NCBI GenBank assembly: GCA_964397635.1
Contig: CAYNJS010000001.1
Location: 1-42,929, forward strand
Reading direction: 5' to 3'
Length of the DNA: 42,929 nucleotides
Source of the DNA: an uncultured Gammaproteobacteria bacterium
Lineage (GTDB): Bacteria; Patescibacteriota; Patescibacteriia; JAACEG01
Every line of letters begins with the position of its first letter. Positions within the stretch are counted from its first letter, which is position 1. Under the pieces are notes generated by a model, which worked only from the letters and a program-made list of their open reading frames with translations, had not been told where the DNA came from and ran no database searches. Shown in pieces: positions 14,150 to 42,810 of the stretch. Position numbers and translations under genes: made by a program.

Positions 14150-14205
14150 AGTTTTAATTTTAGTTAATTAAAAAATTTTTTAAATTAGATTATTTAATTT
14201 TTTAG

Positions 14206-14249
14206 ATCCCGCATCATTTTATTTGATTATATTAAAGAATGTGCGGGAT
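14206..14249. repeat. GATCCCGCA...TGCGGGATGAC palindromic module
   Basis: ATCCCGCA (14206-14213) pairs with TGCGGGAT (14242-14249). A related module is at 15203-15252. Confidence 0.6.
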
Positions 14250-14273
14250 GACATATTCTAAAAGCTAATGAAG

Positions 14274-31320: not shown

Positions 31321-31600
31321 AATATTTTATTAGCTATGCTGATTAATTTTCAATTTACATTTATCAATTTACAATAAATTTTCAATGAACAATTTTTAGT
31401 TAAAAAAGAGGCGGGAATACCGAGATTTGAAAATTTAAAAATTGTAAATTGATAATTTTTAACCAATATAATTAATTATAACTTTACATTTTGCAATTTT
31501 CATTTTGATATTTCCCGCCACTTAAATTAAATGAAGGCGGGATCCCGTCCCGCCGCGGCGGGATGATGAGATTTGATTCTTGCATTTTGTTTTTTTAAAA
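31321..31600. repeat. Composite repeat region (AT-rich inverted arms plus GC-rich CCCGCC/GGCGGG hairpins)
   Basis: ATCAATTTACAAT (about 31364) is inverted as ATTGTAAATTGAT (about 31442). Hairpins TCCCGCC...GGCGGGA (31512-31542) and TCCCGCC-GC-GGCGGGA (31548-31563). A heptad-like TTTGATT/TTGCATTTTG arm runs to the next ATG. Confidence 0.6.
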
Positions 31601-38005: not shown

Positions 38006-40006
38006 ATGGACACCGTATTAAAAACAAGCACTAATATGTTTAAAATAAGTTCGAAATTTAGCCCATCCGGAGACCAGCCGCAAGCTATAAATAAACTAAC
38101 TAAAGGGATTAAAGGTAATAAAAAATATCAAACTCTTTTAGGTGTAACAGGCTCTGGAAAAACCTTTGCAATGGCCAATGTCATTGAACAGGCTCAGAAG
38201 CCTACTCTTGTTATTGCTCATAATAAAACTTTAGCAGCCCAACTTTGTAATGAGTTTAGAGAATTCTTTCCAAACAGTGCAGTAGAATATTTTGTTTCTT
38301 ATTATGATTATTACCAACCAGAGTCTTACATGCCAAGGAGTGATACTTATATTGAAAAGGAAGCACAAATCAATGATGAGATAGACAGATTAAGACATGC
38401 CACAACTAGTGCGTTATTATCACGAAAAGATGTAATTATTGTAGCGTCAGTATCTTGTATTTATGGGCTGGGTTCCCCTGAATCATACAAAGAAGAAGTT
38501 TTACATATAGAAAAAAATACTGAAATTGATCGTACTAAATTAATGAGAAAATTAGTAGAATTGCATTTTACTAGAACTAACGCTTCTTTGAAAAGAGGGG
38601 AATTTAGATCTCGCGGTAATGTAATTGAAATTAATCCAATCGATATTGAAATTGTTTACCGAATTGAATTAAATGGCAATAAAATAGTGAATATTGTATC
38701 AATTAACCCTTTAACCAGAAAAATCAAGGAAGAACTTTTGGATTTTTGGATCTTTTCAGCCAGGCATTTTATAACTTCCGGACCAGAAAAAGAAAGAGCC
38801 GAAAAGGCGATTAAAAAAGAATTACAAGAAAGATTAAAATACTTTAAAAAAGAAGGTCTACTACTAGAAGCCGAGCGATTGGAAAGAAGAACCAATTTTG
38901 ACTTAGAGATGATTAGGGAAATTGGATATTGTAATGGAATTGAAAATTATTCAAGACATCTAACCGGAAGGGCTCCTGGAGAACCTCCTTATACTCTTTT
39001 ATCCTATTTCCCTGAGGACTTTTTAATGTTTATCGATGAATCCCATGTTACGGTTCCACAAATAGGAGGAATGTATAACGGTGATAAAGCTAGAAAAGAT
39101 AGCTTGGTCAAATATGGATTTAGATTGCCAAGTGCTTATGATAATCGACCTCTCAAATTTTATGAATTTGAAAAAAAGATAAAGCAATGTATTTTTACCT
39201 CAGCTACTCCGGCTAAATATGAAATAGAAAATTCAACCCAAGTTGTAGAACAAATTATTAGACCAACTGGCTTGCTTGATCCAGAAATCATAATTAAACC
39301 AGTAACTGGAAAAAAAGAAAACTTGAGCCAGGTTGAAGATTTAATTGAAGAGGTTAAAATTAGATCTAAGAAAAAAGAAAGAGTGTTGGTTACTACTTTA
39401 ACTAAAAAAATGGCCGAGGATTTATCAGAATATTTAGCCCAGCAGAATATTAAATCAAAATATTTACATAGTGACATTAAAACATTTGATAGGGTTAAAA
39501 TATTAACCCAATTTAGAAAAGGGGAATTTGATTGTTTAGTTGGAGTTAATCTACTTAGAGAAGGTCTTGATTTACCAGAGGTTACACTGGTTGCCATATT
39601 AGATGCTGACAAAGAAGGATTCTTAAGAAGTGAAACCTCATTAATCCAAACCATTGGAAGAGCGGCCAGAAATGTTAAAGGTCAAGTTATTTTATATGCC
39701 GATAATATTACCGGATCACTTGATAGAGCTATAAAGGAAACTAATCGAAGAAGAAAAAAGCAAATGGCCTACAATAAAAAACATAACATTAAACCACAAA
39801 CTATTAAGAAAAAAGTTAAAGATATTACAGATGGATTAAGCTTTGAAAAAGTAGAAAAGGTTTTAAATACAGAATTAAAGGCTGAGCCGCACAAAAAAGA
39901 TCAGATTATCAAACAAAAAGAATTTGAAATGAATGAGGCGGCTAAAAATTTAGAATTTGAGTTAGCGGCCATTCTTCGAGATCAAATCAAATTATTAAAG
40001 AAATAG
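38006..40006 (+). CDS. uvrB: Excinuclease ABC subunit B
   Basis: 666 aa. [12 protein letters not shown], beta-hairpin region YYDYYQPE, C-terminal UVR motif ([13 protein letters not shown]). GGGTG lies 6 nt before the ATG at 38006. An alternative start at 38036 (MFKISSKF) matches typical UvrB N-termini. Confidence 0.93.
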
Positions 40007-40018
40007 AGATAATTAATT

Positions 40019-40095
40019 ATGTCATTCCGGCCTCCGAGCCGGAATCCCTGCCTGCCGGCAGGCAAGTAGATTCCGTGTCAAGCACGGAATGACAT
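40019..40095. repeat. Three-hairpin GC-rich palindromic array between uvrB and uvrA
   Basis: ATTCCGG-N8-CCGGAAT, a perfect 16-nt palindrome TGCCTGCCGGCAGGCA (about 40049-40064), and ATTCCGTG-TCAAG-CACGGAAT. The outer inverted ends are ATGTCATTCC...GGAATGACAT. Confidence 0.8.
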
Positions 40096-40108
40096 ATCCG
40101 TATAATAT

Positions 40109-42664
40109 ATGAATAATAAAATAACAATTAAAGGAGCCAAAGAACATAACCTGAAAAATATAGATCTAGAACTTCCAAGGCATAAAATGATCGTTTTTAC
40201 GGGCTTATCTGGATCTGGAAAATCCAGCCTTGCTTTTGATACAATTTTTGCTGAAGGACAACGCAGATACATTGAATCACTATCAGCTTATGCTAGGCAA
40301 TTTTTAGGACAGATGCAAAAACCAGATGTTACAGAAATTGAAGGTCTTTCTCCTGCAATTTCCATTGACCAGAAGGCTCACAGTGCTAATCCTCGTTCTA
40401 CGGTAGCCACTATAACAGAGATTTATGACTACTTAAGGGTTTTATATGCAAGAATAGGAGAGCCATATTGCCCGGTCTGTGATACAAAAATAGAAAAAAT
40501 GACTGTTGAGGAGATGGTTGATATAATTGAAACAGAAGTTAAAAAAGCGGATTCCCGCTTTCGCGGGAATGACAAGAGGCGTGGTCGGGACAAAGATAAA
40601 GAAACGACCATTTTAGCGCCAATTGTTCAGGGAAGAAAGGGGGAATACTATCAAATGTTATATAATATGTATAATGAGGGTTTTATGCATGTTCGAGTTG
40701 ATGGCAAGATGAAAAAACTATCAGAAAAAATTATTTTAAATAAAAATAAACGCCACGAAATAGAATTAGTAACAGATTTATTGCCAAAAGAAGAAGTAAC
40801 AAATCTAGACAAAGACAAGAGACAAAGGCTGTCTGAATCAATTGAAAACGCTCTTGATTATGGGAATGGAATATTAATAGTTAAGCTAGCTGACGGTAAA
40901 GAAAAATTTTTATCGGCTAAATTTAGTTGTCCAAAGTGTAATTTTAGCTTTCCGGAAATCGAACCAAGACTGTTTAGTTTTAATAGTCCTTATGGAGCCT
41001 GTCCGACTTGTCATGGACTTGGAACAGAATCTTTATTTTCTAATAAAGTTTGCTTAGATTGTAATGGGAAAAGACTGCGCAGAGAGGCCCTTTCAGTTTA
41101 TATCGGTAAAAAAAATATATATGAAATTGTAAATCTCGATATAGAGAATGCTATTAATTTTTTCCTTAGCTTAAAATTAACCAAAACCAAAAAAGAAATA
41201 TCCGATGCTGTAATGAAGGAAATAATAAATAGATTGCAATTTATGATGGATGTTGGCTTGGAATATTTAACCCTAAACAGAAAAGCAGGTACATTATCCG
41301 GCGGAGAAGCGCAAAGAATTAGGCTCGCTTCTCAAGTCGGCTCTCAACTTGTAGGCGCTTTATATGTTTTAGATGAGCCAACAATTGGCTTACACCAAAG
41401 AGACAACGATAGATTAATAGAAACCTTAAAAAATCTTAGAGACTTGGGTAATACTATTATAGTAGTAGAACACGATGAAGATACAATTAGAGCGGCTGAT
41501 TATTTAGTAGACTTTGGTCCGGGAGCAGGGAAGCATGGTGGTGAGATAGTTTGCAGTGGTGAAATACCAAAAGTTTTTTGTAATAAAAAATCTTTAACTT
41601 GCCTCTATTTAAGGGGTGATAGTAAAGTACCAGTACCAGTTACCAGAAGAAAAAACAATAAAGATGCCCTAAAAATTTACGGCGCTAAACAAAATAATTT
41701 ACAAAATATTAATATAGAAATACCGCTTCGAAGGTTTGTTTGTATTACCGGAGTGTCTGGATCAGGAAAAAGCTCACTAGCTTATGATGTTCTATATACT
41801 CATCTAGCCAATAGATTAAATAGCGCTAATCACAAAAAAGGTGATTTTAAAAAAATTACCGGTTTAGAATATCTTGATAAAGCAATCTTAATGGATCAAT
41901 CTCCAATTGGTAGAACCCCAAGGAGTAATCCAGCTACTTATACAGGAATATTCACCTATATCCGGGAACTTTTTGCTGCAACGCCTGAAGCTAGATTTAG
42001 AAATTATTTACCTGGAAGGTTTAGCTTTAATGTTCCCAACGAGCGAGGTGGAGGCAGATGCGAACATTGTAGGGGTCATGGCCATATTGCAGTTGAGATG
42101 CACTTTTTACCTACTGTTTATGTTGGGTGTGATATCTGTAAAGGTAGAAGATTTGATAGAGAGACCCTAGAAGTTCACTATAAGAAAAAAAATATTGCCG
42201 ATATATTATCCATGAATGTAGAAGAGGCCTTTGAATTTTTTAAAGATATTCCACACCTTAAAGAAAGGTTAAAAGTATTGAAAGATGTAGGACTTGGCTA
42301 TATTGAGCTTGGCCAAGCCGCCACTACTCTATCTGGTGGTGAGGCCCAAAGGGTAAAACTATCTAATGAACTTGGCAAGAAGGCTACCGGTAAAACTTTT
42401 TATTTATTCGATGAACCAACTACCGGCCTGCATTTTGATGATGTTAGGCAGCTTTTAGATGTTTTGCACCGCTTAGTATTTGAAGGTAACTCCATAGTTG
42501 TAATTGAACATAATTTAGACGTTATAAAAACTGCTGATTATATAATTGACCTTGGCCCGGAGGGGGGTAACAAGGGGGGAACTGTAATTGCCACCGGAAC
42601 ATCTGAGGAAATTGTCAGAAATCCAAAAAGTTACACTGGAAAATATTTAAAGAAATATCTTTAA
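40109..42664 (+). CDS. uvrA: Excinuclease ABC subunit A
   Basis: 851 aa. Two ABC modules (GLSGSGKSSLAFDT, GVSGSGKSSLAYD; LSGGEAQR twice) and zinc modules (CPVC, CPKC..CPTCHG, CEHCRGHG..CDICKG). Confidence 0.95.
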   Translation: MNNKITIKGAKEHNLKNIDLELPRHKMIVFTGLSGSGKSSLAFDTIFAEGQRRYIESLSAYARQFLGQMQKPDVTEIEGLSPAISIDQKAHSANPRSTVATITEIYDYLRVLYARIGEPYCPVCDTKIEKMTVEEMVDIIETEVKKADSRFRGNDKRRGRDKDKETTILAPIVQGRKGEYYQMLYNMYNEGFMHVRVDGKMKKLSEKIILNKNKRHEIELVTDLLPKEEVTNLDKDKRQRLSESIENALDYGNGILIVKLADGKEKFLSAKFSCPKCNFSFPEIEPRLFSFNSPYGACPTCHGLGTESLFSNKVCLDCNGKRLRREALSVYIGKKNIYEIVNLDIENAINFFLSLKLTKTKKEISDAVMKEIINRLQFMMDVGLEYLTLNRKAGTLSGGEAQRIRLASQVGSQLVGALYVLDEPTIGLHQRDNDRLIETLKNLRDLGNTIIVVEHDEDTIRAADYLVDFGPGAGKHGGEIVCSGEIPKVFCNKKSLTCLYLRGDSKVPVPVTRRKNNKDALKIYGAKQNNLQNINIEIPLRRFVCITGVSGSGKSSLAYDVLYTHLANRLNSANHKKGDFKKITGLEYLDKAILMDQSPIGRTPRSNPATYTGIFTYIRELFAATPEARFRNYLPGRFSFNVPNERGGGRCEHCRGHGHIAVEMHFLPTVYVGCDICKGRRFDRETLEVHYKKKNIADILSMNVEEAFEFFKDIPHLKERLKVLKDVGLGYIELGQAATTLSGGEAQRVKLSNELGKKATGKTFYLFDEPTTGLHFDDVRQLLDVLHRLVFEGNSIVVIEHNLDVIKTADYIIDLGPEGGNKGGTVIATGTSEEIVRNPKSYTGKYLKKYL
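40547..40600 (+). repeat. GC-rich palindromic module inserted in-frame within uvrA
   Basis: ATTCCCGC-TTTC-GCGGGAAT perfect hairpin (40551-40570) plus GC-rich flank, encoding ADSRFRGNDKRRGRDKDK. The segment is visibly GC-rich relative to the rest of the gene. Confidence 0.75.
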
Positions 42665-42668
42665 TGTT

Positions 42669-42810
42669 ATCTCGAGTGAGTGAGGCGAGTCGAGAAATCT
42701 AAAATGTCATTCCAAGTTTTATCTTGTCATCCTGAACTAGTTTCAGGATCTATTATGTTATTCCGGACTTCAAGTAGAAATTTAGATTCCGTGTCAAGCA
42801 CTGAATGACA
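42669..42810. repeat. Array of GC-rich palindromic modules downstream of uvrA
   Basis: TCTCGA-N13-TCGAGA (about 42670-42695), ATCCTGAA-CTAGT-TTCAGGAT (42729-42749), and ATTCCGTG-TCAAG-CACTGAAT (42786-42806), which is a one-mismatch copy of the module at 40066-40092. Confidence 0.75.

Follow-up and report, generated by a model that had tools for sequence, protein, structure and literature searches.

Repetitive extragenic palindromic (REP) sequences tagged by CGTC were defined by Di Nocera, De Gregorio and Rocco in 2013; the tag is TGTC in many copies, and CCTC is an accepted variant (PMC3733652). In their CGTC-1 type, an 8-bp stem starting with AT encloses a 4-nt loop and is followed by a short tail (consensus CCA), mostly one inverted dimer type occurs, and the authors equate it with the Neisseria repeat dRS3 and with RPE-6, a Rickettsia palindromic element (RPE) of R. 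conorii (PMC3733652). CGTC REPs have no known dedicated transposase (PMC3733652). The same study reported REPs inside genes, particularly repair genes, among them uvrA of Thioalkalivibrio (REP dimers), both uvrA genes of Opitutus terrae (of the GTAG class according to the supplement) and uvrB of R. conorii; supplement file 4 gives DSRFRGND, DSRLRGND, SFPRKRES, VIPAKAGI and CHSRESGNP as peptides of intragenic CGTC-1 copies in R. conorii, whose host genes include a uvrB homologue and uvrC (PMC3733652). REPs were found to be unusually frequent in UvrABCD and RecBCD genes, and a mutator-type modulation of REP-tagged repair genes was speculated upon (PMC3733652). Here we describe a repeat of this kind in the uvrA gene of a 42,929-nt stretch of DNA, referred to as the window, which is contig C1 of a bacterial draft genome (G000).

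The draft genome comprises 853 kb in 75 contigs, with 33% GC and an estimated completeness of about 80%, and the source names on protein matches place it in the Patescibacteria, or Candidate Phyla Radiation (CPR). Its uvrA (window positions 40109-42664, plus strand) is an intact open reading frame (ORF) of 851 amino acids (aa) in which the UvrB-binding domain is present and the insertion (DNA-binding) domain is not. Positions 40547-40600, where the first-pass annotation had placed an in-frame GC-rich palindrome, read GCG GAT TCC CGC TTT CGC GGG AAT GAC AAG AGG CGT GGT CGG GAC AAA GAT AAA and translate as ADSRFRGNDKRRGRDKDK, residues 147-164 of UvrA. A pattern search and RNA folding locate the palindrome precisely, as a perfect hairpin ATTCCCGC-TTTC-GCGGGAAT at 40551-40570 with an 8-bp stem and a 4-nt loop. 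The pattern has one match in the window and none in 100 shuffles, and an 81-nt stretch containing the hairpin folds at -20.8 kcal/mol (z -2.5) with the 8-bp stem perfectly paired. The GC content is about 0.5 over 40530-40620 and 0.50-0.52 at the segment 40547-40591, against about 0.3 in the surroundings and 0.33 genome-wide. The explanation that we consider very probable is that a CGTC-1 REP copy was gained in a tolerant loop of uvrA, where it persists as a neutral passenger.

By its sequence, the uvrA hairpin is a copy of a dispersed REP-type family of the CGTC-1 class, the class that includes dRS3 of Neisseria and RPE-6 of Rickettsia. On the minus strand, its core consists of the TGTC tag, the 8-bp stem, a GAAA loop, the returning stem and a CCG tail (TGTC-ATTCCCGC-GAAA-GCGGGAAT without the tail), and A and T pair with each other at the first two positions of the stem. 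The 25-nt core GATTCCCGCTTTCGCGGGAATGACA (40550-40574, plus strand), which encodes DSRFRGND, is identical at 25/25 positions to an intergenic sequence on another contig (C4:8859-8883) and at 24/25 to about a dozen other copies. Genome-wide, the exact stem occurs 21 times, with a 4-nt loop in all copies except one, and the pattern GATTCCCGC-N4-GCGGGAATGAC occurs 19 times versus 0 for the control pattern read backwards. A looser definition, with the termini GAT[TC]C[CT]...[AG]G[GA]ATGAC and variable interiors, yields 137 modules, 58 of them paired; 23 dimers are in the -/+ inverted orientation, with the tags outward, none in the +/- orientation, and 7 in the same orientation. The tag end reads (A)TGTCATTCC on the minus strand of most other copies, while the tail is CCG in the uvrA copy and in a copy on contig C20 and CTA in most others.

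The peptides of the R. conorii supplement recur as well: DSRFRGND in UvrA, DSRLRGND in a GT4 glycosyltransferase and in tsaD, a related VIPAKARIQ in tsaD, and SFPRKRES in the ORF antisense to uvrA (40429-40611), where the first-pass annotation had noted an FPRKRES-type peptide. The comparison with Rickettsia palindromic elements made there is literally correct for RPE-6, with which the module shares its class and the identical peptide DSRFRGND (PMC3733652); for the long RPE-1 elements it is not established. That annotation had also likened the hairpin to three intergenic modules of the window, of which those at 40021-40095 and 14206-14249 (the latter delimited by us at 14205-14252, plus strand) do have the family termini, but the one at 31512-31563 has similar CCCGCC/GGCGGG stems without the termini pattern.

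Comparison with relatives indicates how the module came to be in uvrA. In the protein search, UvrA of relative P0001 matched with 89% identity across residues 60-260 and is shorter by 8 residues; DNA comparisons used the gene of L031 (94% identical to P0001) and that of L044 (the same as P0002), and the codon-level comparison included L031, L044 and L002. Over the whole gene, ours and that of L031 are identical at 94.5% of amino acids and 85.6% of nucleotides, with a ratio of nonsynonymous to synonymous substitution rates (dN/dS) of 0.035, and uvrA is under strong purifying selection. Aligning the orthologues, as the first-pass annotation had advised for fixing the boundaries, gave a sole indel in 843 aligned codons, an 8-codon one at the hairpin segment. 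Here the first fifteen codons quoted above, a lineage-specific GC-rich segment of 45 nt (ADSRFRGNDKRRGRD, 40547-40591, plus strand), stand opposite GTT TAT AAA AAT AAA AAA TCC in L031, and both genes continue with a conserved K-D-K-E-T-T-I-L-A-P. In other words, 45 GC-rich nt occupy the place of 21 AT-rich nt, which encode VYKNKKS/W in the closest relatives, for a net gain of 24 nt and 8 aa.

The spacing between the conserved MVD and LAP residues is 13 residues in solved UvrA chains and 30 in our UvrA, as the first-pass annotation had counted, and 22 in the nearest relatives. The insertion of about 50 nt deduced there from this spacing did preserve the reading frame, but it proves to be a replacement that adds 8 aa rather than about 17; of the 17 additional residues seen in comparison with E. 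coli-type UvrA, about 9 are common to the whole subfamily. The palindrome is absent from L031, P0001 and P0002, whose corresponding segment is shorter and AT-rich. All of the 17 nearest homologues have a single, short loop length and a YK.KK motif, which our gene has lost, so that its state is the derived one: the insert is a derived, lineage-specific change of uvrA, and its extra residues are not a lineage-wide trait. The same lineage gained modules in the spacer between uvrB and uvrA too (40007-40108), which measures 102 nt here, whereas L031 and the P0001 contig have the two genes 3 nt apart. No module was found in the 7.1 kb of L031 DNA scanned. More widely, 18 of 41 relatives contain the 24-nt GATTCCCGC-N4-GCGGGAATGAC pattern, as do 59 of 301 genomes sampled from the phylum, and the control gave 0 throughout.

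These data leave next to no probability to the idea that the palindrome was inherited with, or arose convergently within, the UvrA coding sequence, or that it is an assembly artefact. The loop is variable in many lineages and the metagenome assembly is fragmented, as such an origin would have it, but the 25/25 identity to a dispersed family, the absence from all close relatives and the intact ORF with a single in-frame indel all speak against it, and a 25-nt repeat would be unlikely to cause an in-frame misjoin inside a collinear gene.

The module is followed in uvrA by a GC-rich flank of 17 nt (AGAGGCGTGGTCGGGAC, 40575-40591, plus strand), which encodes most of KRRGRD and may combine a spacer with a degenerate GGGAATGAC half-site. 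Short-query blastn and mismatch scans revealed no second copy of this flank in the genome at up to 3 mismatches, and at 4-5 mismatches no excess over shuffled queries. Removing the 24-nt module GAT...GAC leaves exactly the ancestral length, and the remaining stretch differs from the ancestral one at 14/21 nt and has 67% GC. A clean insertion of the 24-nt module, with divergence of the seven adjacent codons, is therefore conceivable, but we favour a composite insert of 42-45 nt accompanied by the loss of 21 nt. Given that 14 of the 21 nt differ and that the GC content is 67% in a genome of 33% GC, the flank stretch is provisionally treated as foreign DNA, and its interpretation as drifted ancestral lysine codons was set aside.

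A likely model for the composite is found elsewhere in the genome, where a module is followed by a spacer of 12-14 nt and a second GGAATGAC half-site in 10 cases, tsaD among them (rough chance estimate about 0.1). In tsaD, the insert GAT TCC CGC CTT CGC GGG AAT GAC ATG GTG AGA AAC GGG AAT GAC encodes DSRLRGNDMVRNGND, and it is directly comparable to its uvrA counterpart, which runs from the GAT at the second codon quoted above to the last codon of the 45-nt segment and encodes DSRFRGNDKRRGRD. Tandem arrays and units of module, spacer and GGAATGAC half-site are seen at G000:C60:4404-4503 and at nine other sites, suggesting that the repeat replicates or slips at its tag end.

The form of the replacement bears on a different account of its origin, in which homologous recombination or gene conversion (with another uvrA allele or an ectopic copy), or template switching at the hairpin in the course of replication or repair, brought in the segment instead of the insertion of a mobile repeat. 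No target-site duplication was found at the uvrA junctions, where 21 ancestral nt are missing instead; this replacement of 21 nt by 45, the uniqueness of the flank, and the points on mobility given below (no known dedicated transposase for CGTC REPs, and a PF01797 distribution that does not track the module in 41 relatives) would all fit such an exchange. On the other hand, no other uvrA with the same insert junction is present among the 120 best protein matches, an exact search for the junction across one genome per species gave none, and the account concerns only the copying mechanism, as the insert would still be repeat-derived. We rate it as highly improbable.

As for the means by which the repeat moves, four ORFs of the PF01797 type (Y1 transposase-like) are present in the genome (C3:2330-3019, C22:10610-11080, C36:3627-4151 and C33:8873-9505), and one of them lies directly after leuS. 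The C3 ORF narrowly passes the NCBIfam model NF047646 for the REP-associated tyrosine transposase (RAYT), with 84 bits for a cut-off of 80, and it is bracketed by an inverted repeat of its own, AAAAGGGGTCA / TGACCCCTTTT, not by the module. Among 41 relatives, module and PF01797 occur together in 10, one without the other in 8 and 8, and neither in 15; G006, the genome with the most copies (29), has no PF01797 match at a completeness of 76%. An association with RAYT was rejected, the C3 gene not being flanked by the module and the two not clearly co-varying, and no dedicated transposase for the module is evident. A miniature inverted-repeat transposable element (MITE) was likewise rejected, as the uvrA junctions show no target-site duplication and the unit of 24-27 nt is below MITE size.

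The window UvrA passes NCBIfam models NF001503 (1316 bits; cut-off 1147) and TIGR00630 (1241 bits, above cut-off). Pfam UvrA_inter (PF17760) matches residues 162-261, from profile position 15, while the insertion domain PF17755 has no match in this protein, and its alignment to a PDB structure lacks chain residues 305-419. Compared with solved UvrA chains (9gxk, 2r6f and others), which have no residues at the insert point, the extra residues sit between the helix ...TVDQMVDRIMEF and the strand RIQLLAPVV, so that the site is the loop in the UvrB-binding domain that joins its first helix to its first strand. An AlphaFold2 model built with 47 homologues (mean predicted local distance difference test, pLDDT, 83; predicted template modelling score, pTM, 0.72) has a helix at 133-153, pLDDT below 50 for 154-163 and a strand at 166-176; the module-encoded residues are predicted to lengthen the helix and then to enter a disordered loop.

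Across the UvrA subfamily, this loop varies from 27 to 47 residues between fixed anchors. The expectation of the first-pass annotation, a new surface loop near the UvrB-binding region, holds in that the site belongs to the UvrB-binding domain and flexibility is predicted for it, but the insert enlarges an already length-variable loop rather than making a new one. Three other lineages (P0006, P0028 and P0034) carry GC-rich, hairpin-forming in-frame inserts of their own in the same region: that of P0006 is missing from the near-identical P0013, that of P0028 is GATACCCGCCTTCGC...GGGCAGGCAAGAGAC, and that of P0034, CCGCC-CAA-GGCGG plus CAGCC-GCG-GGCTG, is not found in P0033. In DNA of other CPR lineages (L045:4001-5413, L051:501-3176 and L052:501-3194), such GC-rich palindromic in-frame inserts in the same helix-loop region are, for example, GSPESSAERLQRGGSGE, DTRLRSATDGQARD and FPPKADQPRAE.

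Such recurrence raises the question of co-option, in which the basic disordered residues (RFRGNDKRRGRD) would alter UvrA-UvrB or UvrA-DNA handling, for instance through the mutator-type modulation mentioned above, or an mRNA hairpin would tune the translation or stability of uvrA. At least four independent palindromic inserts in the same UvrA region, the location within the UvrB-binding domain, a stem that is still perfect at a synonymous divergence (dS) of about 1, and the unusual frequency with which REPs are reported in UvrABCD and RecBCD genes are what co-option would lead one to expect. The ancestral loop, however, was already basic and length-variable and the loop is disordered in the model, and since many unrelated genes of the genome harbour the same module, tolerance fits better than function. 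A role of the hairpin in RNA finds no encouragement either: the sense strand has no U-tract after it, so that it is not a uvrA terminator, and its region has no significant match in Rfam, on which grounds the terminator and Rfam-RNA readings were rejected. We regard co-option as very improbable.

On the antisense strand (window 40541-40570, minus), the hairpin followed by CCGCTTTTTT scores as an intrinsic-terminator-like site, which is probably a by-product of the upstream AAA AAA lysine codons.

A broader proposal is that, in this CPR UvrA subfamily, the start of the UvrB-binding domain is an insertion hot spot and more than a tolerant loop, used in at least four lineages through targeting or through selection on the UvrA-UvrB hand-off, and that a mobilising activity for CGTC REPs operates across phyla, a near-identical 24-nt element being found in Rickettsia, in Neisseria and in a fifth of the sampled Patescibacteria. 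We consider this proposal unlikely.

The gain of a CGTC-1 copy as a neutral passenger would have proceeded as follows. Once the lineage had split from its closest sampled relatives, about 45 nt of GC-rich DNA would have replaced 21 nt of uvrA in the lysine-rich, length-variable loop that leads from the first helix of the UvrB-binding domain to its first strand. The incoming piece would have comprised the 25-nt module and the unique 17-nt flank, the latter probably a remnant of a composite of module, spacer and half-site. Because the net change is 24 nt and the module is free of stops in five of six frames, uvrA would have stayed open and the insert would be translated, as DSRFRGND-KRRGRD. It most likely persists as a neutral passenger because the loop tolerates extra disordered residues.

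Several observations weigh against this reading. The event was not a clean module insertion, with 17 nt that match nothing else in the genome and 21 ancestral nt gone. The loop lies in a domain that contacts UvrB, and the genome is an incomplete draft in many contigs. The stem has stayed perfect despite the dS of about 1 between our uvrA and the relative's gene, which could mean that the insertion is recent, that gene conversion has acted or that the hairpin is selected for, and does not discriminate among these.

The module is not confined to uvrA among coding sequences. The genome-wide search for in-frame copies called for by the first-pass annotation, carried out on all long ORFs with gene identities backed by Pfam, detected them in at least seven other genes. 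In leuS (G000:C22:7744-10611), VIPAHEPES and a degenerate second module lie in the editing-domain region, and valS has CHPEFILGS. The tsaD gene (G000:C15:9596-10777) contains two modules that form a complete inverted dimer, together with a half-site (VIPAKARIQEKKIDSRLRGNDMVRNGND); its query residues from about 131 to 159 have no counterpart in the closest relative (to about 171 in others), the matches being otherwise contiguous. The remaining cases are the GT4 glycosyltransferase gene (DSRLRGND, in the region G000:C11:983-1102), a FemAB-like gene with a module of 56-57 nt, and genes for an LTD/PKD surface protein and a DUF2079 membrane protein. As we read the module sequence, stops are lacking in five of its six frames, so that a length divisible by three and a tolerant site are all that its survival in frame requires.

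Two of these genes show further peculiarities. In the GT4 gene, about four CAGCTAC heptanucleotide units come immediately after DSRLRGND; they are translated as TATSYQLPAT and lie in the linker between the two Rossmann halves. In leuS, there is also an in-frame GIY-YIG nuclease domain (Pfam PF01541, protein residues 324-392).

Around uvrA, the window is rich in modules of the same family. Directly upstream, the ORF list has uvrB (38006-40006, plus strand), and relatives keep this gene order. The spacer between the two genes is occupied by an intergenic module dimer (40021-40093), composed of 40021-40046 on the minus strand and 40069-40093 on the plus strand, which flank a third, inner palindrome CTGCCTGCCGGCAGGCAAG. 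Downstream of uvrA (42706-42810) there are a half-site at 42706-42713 and a module at 42726-42750, both on the minus strand, followed by a copy of 40044-40094 at 42760-42810 with 76% identity.

The genome also has a second UvrA paralogue, an open frame of 848 aa at G000:C55:2557-5100, in which PF17755 is present and PF17760 is not, so that the two proteins show complementary domain losses. Most genomes of the same family show only the C55-type UvrA, and other orders have canonical UvrA of 940-1000 aa. Judging from domain content, it is possible that the two paralogues act as a heterodimer or divide the labour.

The uvrA copy offers a clean, polarised case of an intragenic REP, in which relatives are insert-free, the indel is single and strong purifying selection acts on the gene. 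It extends repeats of the CGTC-1/RPE-6 type, in frame in housekeeping and repair genes, to the ultra-small genomes of the CPR, and in the literature searched we found no report linking REPs or RPEs with CPR/Patescibacteria. For annotation, it accounts for spurious ORFs of the 'SFPRKRES' type and for odd GC-rich loops in CPR proteins. The kind of phenomenon is already described, from REPs in genes and from RPE-6 in Rickettsia, and no new mechanism is opened by this case.

Among known systems, the REP/REPIN-RAYT system, with the GTAG REPs of Pseudomonas and enterobacteria (Bertels and Rainey 2011, PMC3116915), resembles ours in its short hairpin repeats, often in inverted doublets, and in that the genome carries a RAYT-like Y1 transposase gene. 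It differs in that our repeats have no GTAG tag and the RAYT-like gene has no flanking module. RPE-1 elements are about 100-150 bp long and encode 30-50 aa, whereas the unit in our genome is of 24-27 nt (8-9 aa), a distinction drawn by size. As far as the account of RPE-1 by Ogata et al. (2000), cited in PMC3733652, extends, the two are alike in being selfish palindromic DNA that lies in frame in functional housekeeping genes and adds surface peptides while the protein is kept. Relative to CGTC-1 (PMC3733652), our family differs in its host, since Patescibacteria/CPR are outside the five phyla listed in 2013, in its tails, which are mostly CTA (CCG in uvrA) rather than CCA, in having long-loop and composite variants as well as module and half-site units, and, for the uvrA copy, in the unique 17-nt flank and the 21-nt deletion. 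With CGTC-1 it nevertheless shares the TGTC tag, the 8-bp stem starting with AT, the 4-nt loop, the dispersed copies, the dimers of one orientation and the intragenic peptides.

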